In this document: positions 1,976 to 14,026 of the stretch, one piece after another
How positions within the stretch are numbered: position 1 is the first letter of the stretch
Layout of the letters: the number at the start of each line of letters is the position of its first letter
NCBI GenBank assembly: GCA_000004985.1
Contig: GG738984.1
DNA from: Naegleria gruberi
Lineage: Eukaryota
DNA: 14,026 bases
Direction: 5' to 3' (one strand)
Made by a program: the position numbers and the translations under genes
Notes under the pieces: generated by a model
What the model saw: only the letters and a program-made list of their open reading frames with translations
Databases searched by the model: none
Told to the model about the DNA's origin: nothing

Positions 1976-4900
1976 NNNNNNNNNNNNNNNNNNNNNNNNN
2001 NNNNNNNNNNNNNNNNNNNNNNNNNNNNNNNNNNNNNNNNNNNNNNNNNNNNNNNNNNNNNNNNNNNNNNNNNNNNNNNNNNNNNNNNNNNNNNNNNNNN
2101 NNNNNNNNNNNNNNNNNNNNNNNNNNNNNNNNNNNNNNNNNNNNNNNNNNNNNNNNNNNNNNNNNNNNNNNNNNNNNNNNNNNNNNNNNNNNNNNNNNNN
2201 NNNNNNNNNNNNNNNNNNNNNNNNNNNNNNNNNNNNNNNNNNNNNNNNNNNNNNNNNNNNNNNNNNNNNNNNNNNNNNNNNNNNNNNNNNNNNNNNNNNN
2301 NNNNNNNNNNNNNNNNNNNNNNNNNNNNNNNNNNNNNNNNNNNNNNNNNNNNNNNNNNNNNNNNNNNNNNNNNNNNNNNNNNNNNNNNNNNNNNNNNNNN
2401 NNNNNNNNNNNNNNNNNNNNNNNNNNNNNNNNNNNNNNNNNNNNNNNNNNNNNNNNNNNNNNNNNNNNNNNNNNNNNNNNNNNNNNNNNNNNNNNNNNNN
2501 NNNNNNNNNNNNNNNNNNNNNNNNNNNNNNNNNNNNNNNNNNNNNNNNNNNNNNNNNNNNNNNNNNNNNNNNNNNNNNNNNNNNNNNNNNNNNNNNNNNN
2601 NNNNNNNNNNNNNNNNNNNNNNNNNNNNNNNNNNNNNNNNNNNNNNNNNNNNNNNNNNNNNNNNNNNNNNNNNNNNNNNNNNNNNNNNNNNNNNNNNNNN
2701 NNNNNNNNNNNNNNNNNNNNNNNNNNNNNNNNNNNNNNNNNNNNNNNNNNNNNNNNNNNNNNNNNNNNNNNNNNNNNNNNNNNNNNNNNNNNNNNNNNNN
2801 NNNNNNNNNNNNNNNNNNNNNNNNNNNNNNNNNNNNNNNNNNNNNNNNNNNNNNNNNNNNNNNNNNNNNNNNNNNNNNNNNNNNNNNNNNNNNNNNNNNN
2901 NNNNNNNNNNNNNNNNNNNNNNNNNNNNNNNNNNNNNNNNNNNNNNNNNNNNNNNNNNNNNNNNNNNNNNNNNNNNNNNNNNNNNNNNNNNNNNNNNNNN
3001 NNNNNNNNNNNNNNNNNNNNNNNNNNNNNNNNNNNNNNNNNNNNNNNNNNNNNNNNNNNNNNNNNNNNNNNNNNNNNNNNNNNNNNNNNNNNNNNNNNNN
3101 NNNNNNNNNNNNNNNNNNNNNNNNNNNNNNNNNNNNNNNNNNNNNNNNNNNNNNNNNNNNNNNNNNNNNNNNNNNNNNNNNNNNNNNNNNNNNNNNNNNN
3201 NNNNNNNNNNNNNNNNNNNNNNNNNNNNNNNNNNNNNNNNNNNNNNNNNNNNNNNNNNNNNNNNNNNNNNNNNNNNNNNNNNNNNNNNNNNNNNNNNNNN
3301 NNNNNNNNNNNNNNNNNNNNNNNNNNNNNNNNNNNNNNNNNNNNNNNNNNNNNNNNNNNNNNNNNNNNNNNNNNNNNNNNNNNNNNNNNNNNNNNNNNNN
3401 NNNNNNNNNNNNNNNNNNNNNNNNNNNNNNNNNNNNNNNNNNNNNNNNNNNNNNNNNNNNNNNNNNNNNNNNNNNNNNNNNNNNNNNNNNNNNNNNNNNN
3501 NNNNNNNNNNNNNNNNNNNNNNNNNNNNNNNNNNNNNNNNNNNNNNNNNNNNNNNNNNNNNNNNNNNNNNNNNNNNNNNNNNNNNNNNNNNNNNNNNNNN
3601 NNNNNNNNNNNNNNNNNNNNNNNNNNNNNNNNNNNNNNNNNNNNNNNNNNNNNNNNNNNNNNNNNNNNNNNNNNNNNNNNNNNNNNNNNNNNNNNNNNNN
3701 NNNNNNNNNNNNNNNNNNNNNNNNNNNNNNNNNNNNNNNNNNNNNNNNNNNNNNNNNNNNNNNNNNNNNNNNNNNNNNNNNNNNNNNNNNNNNNNNNNNN
3801 NNNNNNNNNNNNNNNNNNNNNNNNNNNNNNNNNNNNNNNNNNNNNNNNNNNNNNNNNNNNNNNNNNNNNNNNNNNNNNNNNNNNNNNNNNNNNNNNNNNN
3901 NNNNNNNNNNNNNNNNNNNNNNNNNNNNNNNNNNNNNNNNNNNNNNNNNNNNNNNNNNNNNNNNNNNNNNNNNNNNNNNNNNNNNNNNNNNNNNNNNNNN
4001 NNNNNNNNNNNNNNNNNNNNNNNNNNNNNNNNNNNNNNNNNNNNNNNNNNNNNNNNNNNNNNNNNNNNNNNNNNNNNNNNNNNNNNNNNNNNNNNNNNNN
4101 NNNNNNNNNNNNNNNNNNNNNNNNNNNNNNNNNNNNNNNNNNNNNNNNNNNNNNNNNNNNNNNNNNNNNNNNNNNNNNNNNNNNNNNNNNNNNNNNNNNN
4201 NNNNNNNNNNNNNNNNNNNNNNNNNNNNNNNNNNNNNNNNNNNNNNNNNNNNNNNNNNNNNNNNNNNNNNNNNNNNNNNNNNNNNNNNNNNNNNNNNNNN
4301 NNNNNNNNNNNNNNNNNNNNNNNNNNNNNNNNNNNNNNNNNNNNNNNNNNNNNNNNNNNNNNNNNNNNNNNNNNNNNNNNNNNNNNNNNNNNNNNNNNNN
4401 NNNNNNNNNNNNNNNNNNNNNNNNNNNNNNNNNNNNNNNNNNNNNNNNNNNNNNNNNNNNNNNNNNNNNNNNNNNNNNNNNNNNNNNNNNNNNNNNNNNN
4501 NNNNNNNNNNNNNNNNNNNNNNNNNNNNNNNNNNNNNNNNNNNNNNNNNNNNNNNNNNNNNNNNNNNNNNNNNNNNNNNNNNNNNNNNNNNNNNNNNNNN
4601 NNNNNNNNNNNNNNNNNNNNNNNNNNNNNNNNNNNNNNNNNNNNNNNNNNNNNNNNNNNNNNNNNNNNNNNNNNNNNNNNNNNNNNNNNNNNNNNNNNNN
4701 NNNNNNNNNNNNNNNNNNNNNNNNNNNNNNNNNNNNNNNNNNNNNNNNNNNNNNNNNNNNNNNNNNNNNNNNNNNNNNNNNNNNNNNNNNNNNNNNNNNN
4801 NNNNNNNNNNNNNNNNNNNNNNNNNNNNNNNNNNNNNNNNNNNNNNNNNNNNNNNNNNNNNNNNNNNNNNNNNNNNNNNNNNNNNNNNNNNNNNNNNNNN

Positions 4901-6426
4901 NNNNNNNNNNNNNNNNNNNNNNNNNNNNNNNNNNNNNNNNNNNNNNNNNNNNNNNNNNNNNNNNNNNNNNNNNNNNNNNNNNNNNNNNNNNNNNNNNNNN
5001 NNNNNNNNNNNNNNNNNNNNNNNNNNNNNNNNNNNNNNNNNNNNNNNNNNNNNNNNNNNNNNNNNNNNNNNNNNNNNNNNNNNNNNNNNNNNNNNNNNNN
5101 NNNNNNNNNNNNNNNNNNNNNNNNNNNNNNNNNNNNNNNNNNNNNNNNNNNNNNNNNNNNNNNNNNNNNNNNNNNNNNNNNNNNNNNNNNNNNNNNNNNN
5201 NNNNNNNNNNNNNNNNNNNNNNNNNNNNNNNNNNNNNNNNNNNNNNNNNNNNNNNNNNNNNNNNNNNNNNNNNNNNNNNNNNNNNNNNNNNNNNNNNNNN
5301 NNNNNNNNNNNNNNNNNNNNNNNNNNNNNNNNNNNNNNNNNNNNNNNNNNNNNNNNNNNNNNNNNNNNNNNNNNNNNNNNNNNNNNNNNNNNNNNNNNNN
5401 NNNNNNNNNNNNNNNNNNNNNNNNNNNNNNNNNNNNNNNNNNNNNNNNNNNNNNNNNNNNNNNNNNNNNNNNNNNNNNNNNNNNNNNNNNNNNNNNNNNN
5501 NNNNNNNNNNNNNNNNNNNNNNNNNNNNNNNNNNNNNNNNNNNNNNNNNNNNNNNNNNNNNNNNNNNNNNNNNNNNNNNNNNNNNNNNNNNNNNNNNNNN
5601 NNNNNNNNNNNNNNNNNNNNNNNNNNNNNNNNNNNNNNNNNNNNNNNNNNNNNNNNNNNNNNNNNNNNNNNNNNNNNNNNNNNNNNNNNNNNNNNNNNNN
5701 NNNNNNNNNNNNNNNNNNNNNNNNNNNNNNNNNNNNNNNNNNNNNNNNNNNNNNNNNNNNNNNNNNNNNNNNNNNNNNNNNNNNNNNNNNNNNNNNNNNN
5801 NNNNNNNNNNNNNNNNNNNNNNNNNNNNNNNNNNNNNNNNNNNNNNNNNNNNNNNNNNNNNNNNNNNNNNNNNNNNNNNNNNNNNNNNNNNNNNNNNNNN
5901 NNNNNNNNNNNNNNNNNNNNNNNNNNNNNNNNNNNNNNNNNNNNNNNNNNNNNNNNNNNNNNNNNNNNNNNNNNNNNNNNNNNNNNNNNNNNNNNNNNNN
6001 NNNNNNNNNNNNNNNNNNNNNNNNNNNNNNNNNNNNNNNNNNNNNNNNNNNNNNNNNNNNNNNNNNNNNNNNNNNNNNNNNNNNNNNNNNNNNNNNNNNN
6101 NNNNNNNNNNNNNNNNNNNNNNNNNNNNNNNNNNNNNNNNNNNNNNNNNNNNNNNNNNNNNNNNNNNNNNNNNNNNNNNNNNNNNNNNNNNNNNNNNNNN
6201 NNNNNNNNNNNNNNNNNNNNNNNNNNNNNNNNNNNNNNNNNNNNNNNNNNNNNNNNNNNNNNNNNNNNNNNNNNNNNNNNNNNNNNNNNNNNNNNNNNNN
6301 NNNNNNNNNNNNNNNNNNNNNNNNNNNNNNNNNNNNNNNNNNNNNNNNNNNNNNNNNNNNNNNNNNNNNNNNNNNNNNNNNNNNNNNNNNNNNNNNNNNN
6401 NNNNNNNNNNNNNNNNNNNNNNNNNN
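1976..6426. other. Assembly gap (4451 N)
   Basis: A run of N. Track ORFs 1879-6438, 1894-6441, 1934-6430 and 1940-6523 are open only because N translates to X. Confidence 1.
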
Positions 6427-7673: not shown

Positions 7674-9481
7674 NNNNNNNNNNNNNNNNNNNNNNNNNNN
7701 NNNNNNNNNNNNNNNNNNNNNNNNNNNNNNNNNNNNNNNNNNNNNNNNNNNNNNNNNNNNNNNNNNNNNNNNNNNNNNNNNNNNNNNNNNNNNNNNNNNN
7801 NNNNNNNNNNNNNNNNNNNNNNNNNNNNNNNNNNNNNNNNNNNNNNNNNNNNNNNNNNNNNNNNNNNNNNNNNNNNNNNNNNNNNNNNNNNNNNNNNNNN
7901 NNNNNNNNNNNNNNNNNNNNNNNNNNNNNNNNNNNNNNNNNNNNNNNNNNNNNNNNNNNNNNNNNNNNNNNNNNNNNNNNNNNNNNNNNNNNNNNNNNNN
8001 NNNNNNNNNNNNNNNNNNNNNNNNNNNNNNNNNNNNNNNNNNNNNNNNNNNNNNNNNNNNNNNNNNNNNNNNNNNNNNNNNNNNNNNNNNNNNNNNNNNN
8101 NNNNNNNNNNNNNNNNNNNNNNNNNNNNNNNNNNNNNNNNNNNNNNNNNNNNNNNNNNNNNNNNNNNNNNNNNNNNNNNNNNNNNNNNNNNNNNNNNNNN
8201 NNNNNNNNNNNNNNNNNNNNNNNNNNNNNNNNNNNNNNNNNNNNNNNNNNNNNNNNNNNNNNNNNNNNNNNNNNNNNNNNNNNNNNNNNNNNNNNNNNNN
8301 NNNNNNNNNNNNNNNNNNNNNNNNNNNNNNNNNNNNNNNNNNNNNNNNNNNNNNNNNNNNNNNNNNNNNNNNNNNNNNNNNNNNNNNNNNNNNNNNNNNN
8401 NNNNNNNNNNNNNNNNNNNNNNNNNNNNNNNNNNNNNNNNNNNNNNNNNNNNNNNNNNNNNNNNNNNNNNNNNNNNNNNNNNNNNNNNNNNNNNNNNNNN
8501 NNNNNNNNNNNNNNNNNNNNNNNNNNNNNNNNNNNNNNNNNNNNNNNNNNNNNNNNNNNNNNNNNNNNNNNNNNNNNNNNNNNNNNNNNNNNNNNNNNNN
8601 NNNNNNNNNNNNNNNNNNNNNNNNNNNNNNNNNNNNNNNNNNNNNNNNNNNNNNNNNNNNNNNNNNNNNNNNNNNNNNNNNNNNNNNNNNNNNNNNNNNN
8701 NNNNNNNNNNNNNNNNNNNNNNNNNNNNNNNNNNNNNNNNNNNNNNNNNNNNNNNNNNNNNNNNNNNNNNNNNNNNNNNNNNNNNNNNNNNNNNNNNNNN
8801 NNNNNNNNNNNNNNNNNNNNNNNNNNNNNNNNNNNNNNNNNNNNNNNNNNNNNNNNNNNNNNNNNNNNNNNNNNNNNNNNNNNNNNNNNNNNNNNNNNNN
8901 NNNNNNNNNNNNNNNNNNNNNNNNNNNNNNNNNNNNNNNNNNNNNNNNNNNNNNNNNNNNNNNNNNNNNNNNNNNNNNNNNNNNNNNNNNNNNNNNNNNN
9001 NNNNNNNNNNNNNNNNNNNNNNNNNNNNNNNNNNNNNNNNNNNNNNNNNNNNNNNNNNNNNNNNNNNNNNNNNNNNNNNNNNNNNNNNNNNNNNNNNNNN
9101 NNNNNNNNNNNNNNNNNNNNNNNNNNNNNNNNNNNNNNNNNNNNNNNNNNNNNNNNNNNNNNNNNNNNNNNNNNNNNNNNNNNNNNNNNNNNNNNNNNNN
9201 NNNNNNNNNNNNNNNNNNNNNNNNNNNNNNNNNNNNNNNNNNNNNNNNNNNNNNNNNNNNNNNNNNNNNNNNNNNNNNNNNNNNNNNNNNNNNNNNNNNN
9301 NNNNNNNNNNNNNNNNNNNNNNNNNNNNNNNNNNNNNNNNNNNNNNNNNNNNNNNNNNNNNNNNNNNNNNNNNNNNNNNNNNNNNNNNNNNNNNNNNNNN
9401 NNNNNNNNNNNNNNNNNNNNNNNNNNNNNNNNNNNNNNNNNNNNNNNNNNNNNNNNNNNNNNNNNNNNNNNNNNNNNNNNN
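7674..9481. other. Assembly gap (1808 N)
   Basis: A run of N. Track ORFs 7605-9494, 7613-9556 and 7667-9562 are artefacts. Confidence 1.
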
Positions 9482-9590
9482 TTGTATGATGCAAAAGTTT
9501 ACATCAAGAAATTGTTGAAAATCTACCTTCTTTTTTGTCTGATCCCTTTCTGGTAGTGTCATTAATTAATATGCTTGGTTGTTCAATCAG

Positions 9591-10553
9591 TCCCAGGCAG
9601 TATTGGATGTTTTTGGTGGGTACAATGGACAAGATGTGGCCGTGTTAAATGTTACATTGTCAGCTCTTTACAAGGATGGTTTAATTCATAATGCTCTCAA
9701 TCTATTCTATGAAAATACGAAAAATTACAAGTTTGATGAAAAAACATTTACAATTATTTTAACAATGTGCAAAGACATGCAAAACGACGATAGTGTAAAG
9801 GGTCAACAATATTTTGAAATGATGAAACAATATGAAGTTGAACCAAATATCTTCCATTATACATGTCTTATCAAGTGTTTTCTCTCAGAAAAGCAATTTG
9901 AAAGGGCTCTGGATATTCTCTTTGATATTCATTTGACAGGAATTCTAATTGATGATGCTTGCTTTAACTCTTCCGGGGGGTCTCTTTAAATCATGATCAT
10001 TATGAAAATTACAATGGAATTGCATCAAATAATCATCACGATGAAGGAAACTTTTCATTCTTCTTTTATTGATTTCTGTGCCCAGTACAGTATGAGAGAA
10101 TTGGCTGGTAGAGTTCACATATAATGAAAGATTTTGGACATAAACCAAATATACAACTCTTCAATATGCTAAATATGTACTTGAATGTTGGAAATTTTGA
10201 AAAAGCTCTAGAACTGTATAAAGAATTAAGAAATCAAGCCAATATTATCACTTGCAACATTCTCATATCTGGATTAACTTTGAATGGGCAGGGTAAAGAA
10301 GCTATTAGGATATTCAAAGAAATGAATATAGCCCCTAATGGCACCACATTTGCTGCAGTGTTGAATGCATGTAGTCATTGTGGATTAATTAAGGAAGGAT
10401 TTCAAATCTATGAAAGTATGCAAACAAATCATGGTATTGAACCAGATGGTCGGACTTTTAATGTTTGACAACCAACCTACATTAAAAGTTATTGTAACCT
10501 TACAAAAAAACTATTATTGGAGAGATGGTGAACTTTGCTATTGTGGTAATTTC
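9591..10553 (+). pseudogene. PLS-class pentatricopeptide repeat (PPR) gene ending in a DYW-like C-terminal block. The reading frame is broken three times, so it is a candidate pseudogene unless the breaks are sequence errors. Its 5' end lies in gap 2.
   Basis: Segment A, 9591-9986 (frame 0), carries P/L-type repeats and ends at a TAA (9987-9989) where the S-motif needs a hydrophobic residue. Segment B, 10014-10121 (same frame), reads MELHQIIITMKETFHSSFIDFCAQYSMRELAGRVHI and ends at TAA 10122-10124. Segment C, 10124-10465 (frame +2), matches the plant S2/E1 consensus almost exactly: ..NIITCNILISGLTLNGQGKEAIRIFKEMNIAPNGTTFAAVLNACSHCGLIKEGFQIYESMQTNHGIEPDGRTF. After another frame change, 10470-10553 reads TLKVIVTLQKNYYWRDGELCYCGNF. 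This aligns with the DYW-domain terminus [25 protein letters not shown]. There is no in-frame ATG. A possible acceptor is caatcag|TCC at 9588-9591. Confidence 0.5.
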
Positions 10554-10643: not shown

Positions 10644-11016
10644 ATGTGTACTAATAATAATAATAATAATACTCTCACTGGTAAATTAATCATGAGAAAG
10701 AACAAGGAAGAAAGTATTGAAAAGGTTTTCCAATTAATTAATTTCGGAGGCTTGAATGAATCTGTTAGAGAATTTGTTCAAGATTTGTCATCTGCTACTT
10801 CTTCTGATGAAGTGTTATTATCCACTTTCAAGATCAAGGCTATTGTTCCATCTTCTGAGAAGAGAAAAACAATTTATATAATTAATAATGAAAATGATTT
10901 TTCTGAAATGATGAAATTAATTCAAGAAATTCCACAAGATAAACCAATTCTTTTCAGAGTAATGAAGAAGAAATTGAATCATGAAAAGAAGGAAAGAAAG
11001 GAAAAGAAAGAAAGAA
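10644..11016 (+). CDS. Hypothetical protein, N-terminal part, running into gap 3: (MCTNNNNNNTLTGKLI)MRKNKEESIEKVFQLINFGGLNESVREFVQDLSSATSSDEVLLSTFKIKAIVPSSEKRKTIYIINNENDFSEMMKLIQEIPQDKPILFRVMKKKLNHEKKERKEKKER..
   Basis: The frame is open for more than 200 codons (10410-11016) in AT-rich DNA. In-frame ATGs sit at 10644 (aaaATG context) and 10692. Coding triplet texture is present and there is no stop before the gap. The frame is also open upstream into the PPR DYW-like block, so this could be a C-terminal extension of the PPR gene rather than a separate gene. No family was recognised. Confidence 0.4.
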
Positions 11017-12059
11017 NNNNNNNNNNNNNNNNNNNNNNNNNNNNNNNNNNNNNNNNNNNNNNNNNNNNNNNNNNNNNNNNNNNNNNNNNNNNNNNNNNNN
11101 NNNNNNNNNNNNNNNNNNNNNNNNNNNNNNNNNNNNNNNNNNNNNNNNNNNNNNNNNNNNNNNNNNNNNNNNNNNNNNNNNNNNNNNNNNNNNNNNNNNN
11201 NNNNNNNNNNNNNNNNNNNNNNNNNNNNNNNNNNNNNNNNNNNNNNNNNNNNNNNNNNNNNNNNNNNNNNNNNNNNNNNNNNNNNNNNNNNNNNNNNNNN
11301 NNNNNNNNNNNNNNNNNNNNNNNNNNNNNNNNNNNNNNNNNNNNNNNNNNNNNNNNNNNNNNNNNNNNNNNNNNNNNNNNNNNNNNNNNNNNNNNNNNNN
11401 NNNNNNNNNNNNNNNNNNNNNNNNNNNNNNNNNNNNNNNNNNNNNNNNNNNNNNNNNNNNNNNNNNNNNNNNNNNNNNNNNNNNNNNNNNNNNNNNNNNN
11501 NNNNNNNNNNNNNNNNNNNNNNNNNNNNNNNNNNNNNNNNNNNNNNNNNNNNNNNNNNNNNNNNNNNNNNNNNNNNNNNNNNNNNNNNNNNNNNNNNNNN
11601 NNNNNNNNNNNNNNNNNNNNNNNNNNNNNNNNNNNNNNNNNNNNNNNNNNNNNNNNNNNNNNNNNNNNNNNNNNNNNNNNNNNNNNNNNNNNNNNNNNNN
11701 NNNNNNNNNNNNNNNNNNNNNNNNNNNNNNNNNNNNNNNNNNNNNNNNNNNNNNNNNNNNNNNNNNNNNNNNNNNNNNNNNNNNNNNNNNNNNNNNNNNN
11801 NNNNNNNNNNNNNNNNNNNNNNNNNNNNNNNNNNNNNNNNNNNNNNNNNNNNNNNNNNNNNNNNNNNNNNNNNNNNNNNNNNNNNNNNNNNNNNNNNNNN
11901 NNNNNNNNNNNNNNNNNNNNNNNNNNNNNNNNNNNNNNNNNNNNNNNNNNNNNNNNNNNNNNNNNNNNNNNNNNNNNNNNNNNNNNNNNNNNNNNNNNNN
12001 NNNNNNNNNNNNNNNNNNNNNNNNNNNNNNNNNNNNNNNNNNNNNNNNNNNNNNNNNNN
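11017..12059. other. Assembly gap (1043 N), immediately preceded by a GAA/GAAA purine microsatellite (10975-11016)
   Basis: A run of N. Track ORFs 10410-12125, 10917-12113 and 10981-12096 are joined across the N run and are artefacts. Confidence 1.
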
Positions 12060-12096: not shown

Positions 12097-12192
12097 ATAT
12101 GACAATGGACCAAAGGTTAGTTTAAAGAAAGAAAACAAAGGTAAAGAAAAAGGAGTGAATACATTTATATTTCACACTTTAAGTAATCGAAT

Positions 12193-12312
12193 GGCTACGG
12201 CCATATCACGATGAATGCACCTCATCCCGTCCGATTTGAGAAGTTAAGCATCGTAGAGCCACATCAGTACTGAGGTTGGAGACAACTTGGGAACCTGTGG
12301 TGCTGTAGTCTT
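12193..12312 (+). rRNA. 5S ribosomal RNA gene
   Basis: GGCUACGGCCAUAUCACGAUGAAUGCACCUCAUCCCGUCCGAUUUGAGAAGUUAAGCAUCGUAGAGCC...GUACUGAGGUUGGAGACAACUUGGGAACCUGUGGUGCUGUAGUC matches universal 5S blocks (GGCCAUA.., CCCGUCCGAU, GAAGUUAAGC, GUACU, GGGAA, GGUGCUGUA). The 5' GGCUACGGC pairs with the 3' GCUGUAGUC to form a 9-bp helix I with two G-U pairs. Length is about 120 nt. An oligo-T follows immediately. Confidence 0.9.
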
Positions 12313-12316
12313 TTTT
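12311..12316 (+). terminator. Pol III oligo-T terminator (TTTTTT) for the 5S gene
   Basis: A T6 run lies directly after the helix I 3' strand. Confidence 0.6.
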
Positions 12317-12630
12317 GTTAACAACAGAATTAAATGTATTAAATGTAAGTTATCATATTCCTTCCGTTGGTGTTAAGTCTTGTCTTTTCACTCCTTAATT
12401 GCATATTTATTTTGTAATGCGATCACAATGATGATGCAAGCAACAACGTCACCAAAAACAATCTCCGAGAAATCAACAAGCCAGAAATTTCATCACTAAA
12501 ATTTTAGCTAGAAAAAATTACTTGTCACCAAAACAAAAGAAAAATCAAGCAAACTTGTTCACTCCAAGAAGAAGATCAAAGGCTAGCGATTTTGAAAGTG
12601 TAAATAAAGAGAACCAATAATAACAATAAC

Positions 12631-13561
12631 ATGAGAAAAAGAGAAGCATTGATGGACGAGTTTTCCGATCCATCACCAAAGAAATTATTGGATGATGATG
12701 ACGAGGAAACTTCTGATTTTATTGAACATAAGAAATCGACCAAGAAGAAGAGTAGTAGCAAGACAAAGAATCAACATAATAGAACATTCTCATCATCGAG
12801 TACGGGGAGTACAGGGAGTGGTGGTGGCGGAAATGTAACTTTTGGATATGGAAAAAAGCAACAACACACAAGAACACAATCATCAACATCGAGTACAGGT
12901 TCTCCTGTTGGAGGAGGTTATCAATCATCGGGTATATATGATGGTGATTCCTCTCCTGTTGTTACATCAGATAATTATGATAATAATCGATTGAATTACT
13001 CTGCATCGAATAGTAATATTGATAAATACAAGGGAATAAGTTCAAGAGATATGGGAAAGGTTAATAGTATGCCATCAATTTCGGAATCATATGAAAATTC
13101 ATCATCATCATCATACTCTAATGATCCACGTATTGGTACCATGAAGAATAATTATTATGAACAGGCAAGAAAGAGACAAAACGAAGAGAGTGGTCCATAC
13201 ATTTTGCAAGTTATTGCCGATATGTTAAAGTATATTTATTCATCAATTACAGAAACTGCCAATATTGGAGGATCTAGATTGACAAGTGCCGTCTCGGGAA
13301 TGAATTTCAGACAGAATCAATCCAATGCAAATCCAAGAGCAGGAGGTGATTTCCCATCTCCAGAGATTTATTTAGAACCTGAAAAGAAGCAAATTTTGGA
13401 ACAATTCAAAAAGTATTGCTCTAAAAAGTTCGACATTGAGAATGACAAACATCAAAAACTGTTATTCTCACTCTACAAGTGTTGTACTCAGAAGAAGACT
13501 ATTTTAACTGAGGGAGAACATTGGAAATTCTTGGGATTCCAAAACACAAAACCAGAAACTG
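12631..13561 (+). CDS. ELMO-domain protein, exon 1. The N-terminal about 230 aa are S/G/N/T-rich low complexity; the start of the ELMO domain follows (..EHWKFLGFQNTKPET).
   Basis: ATG at 12631 is the first in-frame ATG after a TAA at 12601-12603, in an aacATG context. The frame is open to 13561 and the exon ends in a GTAAGT donor. The apparent stop of track ORF 12631-13569 (TAA at 13567-13569) is part of that donor. Confidence 0.85.
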
Positions 13562-13653
13562 GTAAGTAATCACTATTGTTTTATTAATAATGTTTCATAA
13601 CTTTACTTGTTCAATTTCATCAATAATTGGATCGGAATAATTATTAATAACAG
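13562..13653 (+). other. Intron (92 nt, GTAAGT..AACAG, phase 1) splitting the ELMO-domain T-D-F-R-G motif
   Basis: Exon 1 ends ..ACT G. After the acceptor CAG (13651-13653), exon 2 starts AC TTT AGA GGA GCA GGT. The spliced read is ..KPETDFRGAGILGLRNLLYF, matching the ELMO consensus W..LGFQ...P.TDFRG.G.LGL..L.YF. Confidence 0.85.
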
Positions 13654-14026
13654 ACTTTAGAGGAGCAGGTATTCTTGGGTTGAGAAATTTACTCTACTTC
13701 TCCAAACATTACAAGAAGAGATTCAAGAATTACTTTGGAAAATGTACAAATGAGATTTCTGTCACTGATGATGGTACTTTCACAAGTTATCCATTTGTTA
13801 TTGCTGGGTTGAATGTGACAATGTTGCTCTTGTCCTTCCTAGGTATTGGATTCCAAGCATCTAAGGTACATAATGTGACGGCCAAGAAGAATTTCATTGA
13901 ACTTTTAACATCCGAAAGAGGAAAACCAGTTCTTGAAGAGGATGAAGACGAAGAGGAGGATGAAGATTCTACACCTGTAGTTACAGAAGGAACACTGCTT
14001 TCCTTTGATGACATTCCAGAACAAAA
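13654..14026 (+). CDS. ELMO-domain protein, exon 2 (partial, continues past the window end): DFRGAGILGLRNLLYFSKHYKKRFKNYFGKCTNEISVTDDGTFTSYPFVIAGLNVTMLLLSFLGIGFQASKVHNVTAKKNFIELLTSERGKPVLEEDEDEEEDEDSTPVVTEGTLLSFDDIPEQ
   Basis: No stop codon from 13654 to 14026 in the spliced frame. Carries ELMO-domain hallmarks. The antisense track ORF 13787-14014 is rejected. Confidence 0.85.

Follow-up and report, generated by a model that had tools for sequence, protein, structure and literature searches.

The window analysed here, a stretch of DNA of 14,026 nucleotides, carries an intact 5S ribosomal RNA gene, and we are confident that this is a normal and probably functional nuclear 5S gene from scaffold_147 of Naegleria gruberi, whose genome contains about 280 such copies, nearly identical and dispersed. 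The gene is a true 5S gene of undamaged structure, its host is N. gruberi, it stands as a single copy between protein-coding genes, and it belongs to a dispersed family that has been described in the literature.

Results

Identity and structure of the 5S rRNA gene

A covariance-model search yielded a full-length match of the plus strand to the Rfam family 5S_rRNA (RF00001), which spans model positions 1–120 and reaches 106.5 bits (E = 5e-23) at a gathering score of 38 bits, with zero non-standard pairs flagged. The upper-case positions of the RF00001 consensus are matched throughout, except for both partners of a single helix IV pair, and the conserved loop motifs are present, namely CAUA in loop A, CCCGUCCGAU in loop C, and AGUA/GAA in loop E. 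Helices I–V are all paired in the alignment to the covariance model, and the free minimum-free-energy fold of the RNA (−41.5 kcal/mol, z = −2.76 versus shuffles) shows the three arms of the canonical structure, in which helix I has 9 bp and helix IV, capped by a GAGA loop, has 6 bp. The GC content is 50% in the gene and 30% in its flanks. The 3′ end of the gene reads ...GTAGTC and is followed by TTTTTT, and the T-run thus directly abuts the gene. An earlier note on this DNA had placed a complete 5S gene, oligo-T terminator included, at 12193–12316 and had proposed the RF00001 search as a check; the search, which returned the full model, bears this description out, the T6 run fits the 3′ end, the coordinates are right, and the 3′ half of the gene that was quoted there is found in the sequence as written. 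The window gene is a real and intact 5S rRNA gene, and its features are compiled in Table 1.

Table 1. Features of the 5S rRNA gene and the sequence immediately around it (window coordinates).
Feature	Position	Strand	Basis
5S rRNA gene, mature RNA of about 119 nt	12193..12311	+	RF00001; family member R33904
Oligo-T run TTTTTT, presumed RNA polymerase III terminator	12311..12316	+	Direct reading; terminator function suggested by general Pol III biology
Internal control region, Box A-like part (+51 to +65)	12243..12257	+	Core GTTAAGC at 12243–12249 (+51 to +57)
Internal control region, Box C-like part (+82 to +97)	12274..12289	+	Consensus GRTGGGNGWCCNYNNG, 2 mismatches
TATA-like element TTTATATTT, TATAT core at −27 to −23	12164..12172	+	Direct reading; candidate TBP/TFIIIB site, putative function

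The 3′ domain had been regarded as unusual in the earlier note. In the free fold, the segment AGGUUG-GAGA-CAACUU forms a perfect 6-bp helix IV that is capped by a GAGA tetraloop, and a comparison of the window segment GGUUGGAGACAAC with the Rfam consensus GgUGgGuGAcCaC reveals a G-C pair of helix IV that is replaced by U-A, plus one weakly conserved loop nucleotide. This replacement is a compensatory double change, and its two positions are the only strongly conserved ones that are altered relative to the consensus. The 3′ domain is an ordinary covarying helix with one compensatory pair, and the impression of an unusual domain was not confirmed. Nor is the motif suited as a dictyostelid marker, as N. 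gruberi has it and as it occurs unchanged in two metagenome contigs that come from Naegleria relatives (L001 and L003, described below).

Host and genomic surroundings

Slightly more than half of the window consists of N bases (7,302 of 14,026, or 52%). They form three runs (1976–6426, 7674–9481, and 11017–12059) that may represent assembly gaps or masking, and they conceal the gene upstream of the 5S gene plus most of the pentatricopeptide-repeat (PPR) gene and neighbouring genes. Only 133 nt of real sequence lie 5′ of the 5S gene, after the third run; a reading frame stops there at 12123–12125, a putative counterpart of the protein-coding gene end that the earlier note had placed about 100 bp upstream of the 5S gene, and the N run lies further upstream. 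On the other side, the ORF for an ELMO/CED-12 protein starts at 12631 and thus 320 bp past the end of the 5S gene, which is the distance that the earlier note had estimated. Besides the 5S gene, the window contains the C-terminus of alpha-adaptin, a minus-strand gene for a PAS/guanylate-cyclase protein, the PPR gene, and the ELMO/CED-12 gene. The description of the 5S gene as a single copy between Pol II genes is correct, and the further statement that it lies outside an rDNA unit or tandem array is valid just for that half of the window which is not masked.

5S_rRNA is the one Rfam family that exceeds its threshold anywhere in the window. When other RNA genes were searched for in the whole window (52% N) with Rfam at E ≤ 1, two chance-level matches were all that was obtained, and no other rRNA was among them; ARAGORN found no tRNA genes in the window. 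The two matches are to SNORD20 (10889–10957, plus strand, 27 bits versus a threshold of 43) and to a CRISPR repeat model (13393–13427, plus strand, 24.7 bits versus a threshold of 50). In the unmasked part of the window, the 5S gene is not adjacent to 18S, 5.8S, or 28S genes.

The cyclase ORF is 100% identical to a protein annotated as 'predicted protein [Naegleria gruberi]' (P0003), and its next relatives are from N. gruberi, N. fowleri, and Acrasis kona. The window as a whole corresponds to one small scaffold of the assembly of N. gruberi. The GC content of the window is 32.5%; for Naegleria genomes, 33–37% GC and sizes of 27–54 Mb have been reported. As side observations, the gene for this PAS-domain and class III nucleotide cyclase protein extends over 637–1943 on the minus strand with a short intron at about 970–1100, and outside of Naegleria and Acrasis its nearest named relatives are mostly cyclases of cyanobacteria, of the PAS or response-regulator kind. 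The PPR gene (9579–10468, plus strand) consists of two ORF pieces, runs out of the upstream N run, and gives PPR_2/PPR Pfam matches with E values of 1e-10 to 1e-20.

The dispersed 5S gene family of N. gruberi

A catalogue of 279 putative 5S genes in the JGI genome of N. gruberi has been published (Feng et al., 2012; PLoS One 7:e36878; PMC3369914), and the row of its Table S1 that corresponds to the window gene reads 'R33904, scaffold_147, 12196-12312' (PMC3369914). R33904 is the sole entry for scaffold_147, and its coordinates agree with those of Rfam within 3 nt. Membership of a dispersed family had been the fallback of the earlier note, and this is what the row R33904 among 279 scattered copies establishes. 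Table 1 of the same study lists the N. gruberi 5S genes as lying apart from the rDNA units, with an internal control region (ICR) and a TATA box present, and it lists TFIIIB and TFIIIC as present and TFIIIA as not found; T-run terminators were reported for these genes as well (Feng et al., 2012; PMC3369914).

The same Table 1 also assigns a 'tandem arrangement: Y' to the N. gruberi 5S genes (Feng et al., 2012; PMC3369914). This label is contradicted by the coordinates of the same paper, as our re-analysis of the 279 Table S1 entries (PMC3369914) gave a different picture of the family organisation: the copies are spread over 117 scaffolds, 57 of which have one copy each, and the gaps between copies (n = 162) have a median of 33.9 kb, with 1 under 1 kb and 32 under 5 kb. 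A neighbouring copy is found at a distance of 5 kb or less for 62 of the 279 copies, there are four loose triplets with an irregular spacing of 2–5.5 kb, and regular 5S arrays are absent among the 279 copies. The N. gruberi 5S copies are scattered, and since they occupy 117 scaffolds with such a median gap, a lone copy amid protein-coding genes is the norm in this organism. Most copies (264 of 279) have a length of at least 110 nt; the 15 shorter ones include clearly truncated copies. The catalogue similarity of R33904 is 0.7417, one step under the modal value of 0.75 that is shared by 161 copies in Table S1.

The chromosomal location of the family follows from the known organisation of the other rRNA genes. 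The rDNA of Naegleria is a circular extrachromosomal plasmid of 13–15 kb that has been described as having single copies of the 18S, 5.8S, and 28S genes only, and the 5S genes must therefore be chromosomal.

Related copies in metagenomes

An ENA metagenome contig (L001) is 96.9% identical to window positions 12223–13695, i.e., over about 1.5 kb. Of the 5S gene, L001 contains the 3′ 89 nt, and the ELMO gene comes next as it does in the window. Judged by this sequence, L001 represents the orthologous locus of a closely related strain, and the order of 5S gene and ELMO gene is stable. Differences between the strains were also seen outside of the 5S gene. Just past the terminator, at 12329–12346, the window has a 9-nt tandem duplication (ATTAAATGT twice), and as L001 has one copy only, the duplication reads as a strain polymorphism. 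Several indels distinguish the window from L001 in intron 1 of the ELMO gene (GT...AG, 13561–13655), where the column identity is 82%, versus 99.5% in exon 1. A constraint test on the window–L001 pair compared 1 substitution in 89 positions with 2 in 319 (Fisher p = 0.48), at a divergence that is too low for such a test.

A second contig (L003), from a JGI metagenome, was found via the 3′ motif and has a full-length 5S copy with an RF00001 score of 106.3 bits. Its alignment with the window is confined to 12191–12314 (124 nt, 98.4% identity, 2 mismatches), and the flanks are unrelated: in L003, a hydrolase-like ORF on the opposite strand starts 166 bp from the 5′ end of the 5S copy. As the likeness ends at the gene borders, the repeated unit is essentially the 5S gene itself, a conclusion on gene-only similarity for which one paralogous copy, that of this metagenome relative, was compared. 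L003 was the one JGI metagenome match, and further Naegleria-type 5S copies were found neither in the GTDB genomes nor in IMG/VR.

Among the window, L001, and L003, the 5S sequence varies at two sites, both unpaired, which correspond to alignment columns 24 and 64. Column 24 is U in the window and A in L003, and column 64 (window position 12255) is A in the window and C in both L001 and L003. Because of this private A at 12255, together with a catalogue similarity below the modal value, the window copy is a minor variant within the family. The copies also differ in their terminators, as L003 has TTTT where the window gene has T6.

Promoter elements

The putative internal control region has its two parts at the positions given in Table 1. 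The core of Box A matches the consensus S-Y-Y-A-A-N-C (Feng et al., 2012; PMC3369914), a degenerate motif that is informative by position only, as the window contains 18 matches versus 19.6 expected. For Box C, the site in the 5S gene is the only one in the window that agrees with the consensus GRTGGGNGWCCNYNNG with at most two mismatches. This Box C-like sequence doubles as helix IV and loop D and is identical with the motif GGTTGGAGACAACTTG that the earlier note had considered odd; its two mismatches fall exactly on the U and the A of the compensatory pair in that helix.

An element resembling a TATA box lies upstream of the window gene, and L003 has TATAG at −22 to −18. These upstream elements were read in the two copies with upstream sequence, and TATA is present in about 5% of the 21-nt windows of this DNA.

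Discussion

With the identity of the gene and the organisation of its family at hand, the expression of the window copy can be discussed. Judging from its sequence features, it is probably active as a 5S gene. On the basis of general Pol III biology and of the analysis by Feng et al., RNA polymerase III would start transcription at about 12193 and would terminate within the T6 run at 12311–12316. The internal control region (Box A at +51, Box C at +82) would govern initiation, and the upstream TATA-like element at about −25 probably positions TFIIIB. The resulting RNA of about 119 nt is predicted to fold into the canonical three-arm 5S structure and to enter the large ribosomal subunit. The approximately 280 copies of the family at large are placed singly or in loose pairs among protein-coding genes.

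Other readings of the locus have to be weighed against this one. The headline of the earlier note was that the host may be a dictyostelid with a 5S copy dispersed in its chromosomes, which was based on a supposed likeness of helix IV to Dictyostelium 5S rRNA; the AT-richness of the window and its Asn/Ser-rich ORFs are superficially slime-mould-like as well. A dictyostelid host is refuted by the 100% protein match of the cyclase ORF to N. gruberi and by the catalogue row R33904, in which scaffold and coordinates are those of an N. gruberi 5S gene (PMC3369914). In addition, PAS-cyclase relatives occur in N. fowleri and Acrasis, and the GC content of the window fits that of Naegleria genomes, so that we assign virtually no probability to this reading. 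The copy had been called notable if the host were a dictyostelid, given that the D. discoideum 5S genes reside on the rDNA palindrome, and as the host is Naegleria gruberi, this point falls away. A silent or decaying pseudocopy in place of an expressed gene is a more serious consideration, as the catalogue does contain clearly truncated copies (15 of 279 are shorter than 110 nt), as the similarity of the window copy is below the modal value (0.7417 versus 0.75), and as the A at 12255 is private to the window copy when compared with the orthologous L001 and the paralogous L003. Yet this substitution is located in an unpaired bulge, and it is the A of the window that corresponds to the Rfam consensus ('uag') and not the C of the other two copies. 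The window copy is moreover of full length with every helix intact, its covariance-model score equals that of L003 (106.5 versus 106.3 bits), and both a terminator and a TATA-like element are present. We therefore regard a pseudocopy as distinctly improbable.

It could also be asked whether, in place of a free-standing gene, there is a mobile element that begins with the 5S sequence, for example a SINE derived from 5S, a Cassandra-like element, or a small element with terminal inverted repeats. The dispersal of the family would be in line with this idea, and so would short inverted repeats around the window gene, which involve 12150–12167 on the one side and 12331–12340 plus 12387–12396 on the other: upstream, they consist of AAGGAGTGAA/TACATTTA, and on the downstream side the complement occurs in two pieces with about 46 nt between them. 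Of 500 dinucleotide shuffles, 17 reached the alignment score of these repeats, which are thus marginal. At L003, however, there is no comparable flanking inverted repeat (the score was reached in 174 of 500 shuffles), and the likeness of the two copies ends 2–3 nt from the gene borders (12191–12314). Neither a shared tail nor an A-rich tract nor a target-site duplication was found at the window 5S gene, the Rfam match is complete at both ends, and the terminator follows the gene immediately. The inverted repeats that flank the window gene are probably due to chance, and a mobile element is an extremely unlikely explanation. A normal nuclear 5S gene of the dispersed N. gruberi family thus remains our preferred reading.

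A separate question concerns the transcription factors that act on this family. The classical type 1 Pol III promoter, as known from Xenopus and yeast, comprises Box A, an intermediate element, and Box C, and is recognised with the help of TFIIIA. The window gene resembles it in having the Box A core at +51 and a Box C-like sequence at +82 to +97, both canonical positions, and in its oligo-T run, and it differs from it in the two deviations in Box C, in the TATA-like element at about −25, and in that TFIIIA has not been identified in N. gruberi. Box C is the main TFIIIA contact in the classical model, as known from the Xenopus system. In the N. gruberi genome, a BLAST search in 2012 did not detect a TFIIIA homologue (Feng et al., 2012; PMC3369914), and we found no literature on TFIIIA in Naegleria beyond that study. 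Due to the two misses in Box C and the TFIIIA homologue that was not found, the initiation mechanism is not certain for the N. gruberi 5S genes. It may be that TATA/TFIIIB together with TFIIIC, or else a factor that has escaped recognition, drives about 280 genes that share only the transcribed 120 bp. Such a transcription without classical TFIIIA would concern the whole family and would not be special to the window locus. It is suggested by the negative BLAST result of 2012, the deviations in Box C, and the TATA-like sequences at about −20 to −27 upstream of two copies, and we consider it rather unlikely at present.

How does the Naegleria family compare with 5S genes elsewhere? With respect to the N. 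gruberi family of Feng et al. (2012; PMC3369914), the window gene is the same object, and there is no difference in the gene. In Dictyostelium discoideum, the large rRNA genes are extrachromosomal and multicopy as they are in Naegleria, and the 5S gene is in both cases a Pol III gene of about 120 nt; however, the 5S genes of D. discoideum are on the extrachromosomal rDNA palindrome together with the 17S and 26S genes, whereas those of Naegleria are chromosomal and the plasmid carries 18S, 5.8S, and 28S genes only. Scattered 5S genes are known but uncommon, with Neurospora crassa, Schizosaccharomyces pombe, and Acanthamoeba castellanii as examples (Haeusler and Engelke, 2006; PMC1635290). As in these three organisms, the Naegleria 5S genes are dispersed among Pol II genes with only the transcribed region being conserved, and a separate promoter and terminator are presumably present at every copy. 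Unlike these three, Naegleria belongs to the Heterolobosea within the Discoba, and its copy number of about 280 is higher. For Acanthamoeba, a TFIIIA activity has been described, in contrast to N. gruberi, where the search for a homologue of TFIIIA found none.

In summary, the window gene, its host, the copy number of the family, and its separation from the rDNA have already been published, and the analysis has little weight as a discovery; its outcomes are mainly corrective. That the host is N. gruberi and not a dictyostelid changes the reading of every other finding from this window. By the published coordinates, Naegleria joins Neurospora, S. pombe, and Acanthamoeba in the small group of eukaryotes whose 5S genes are scattered, and the common statement that the rRNA genes of Naegleria are found exclusively on the plasmid does not extend to the 5S genes.
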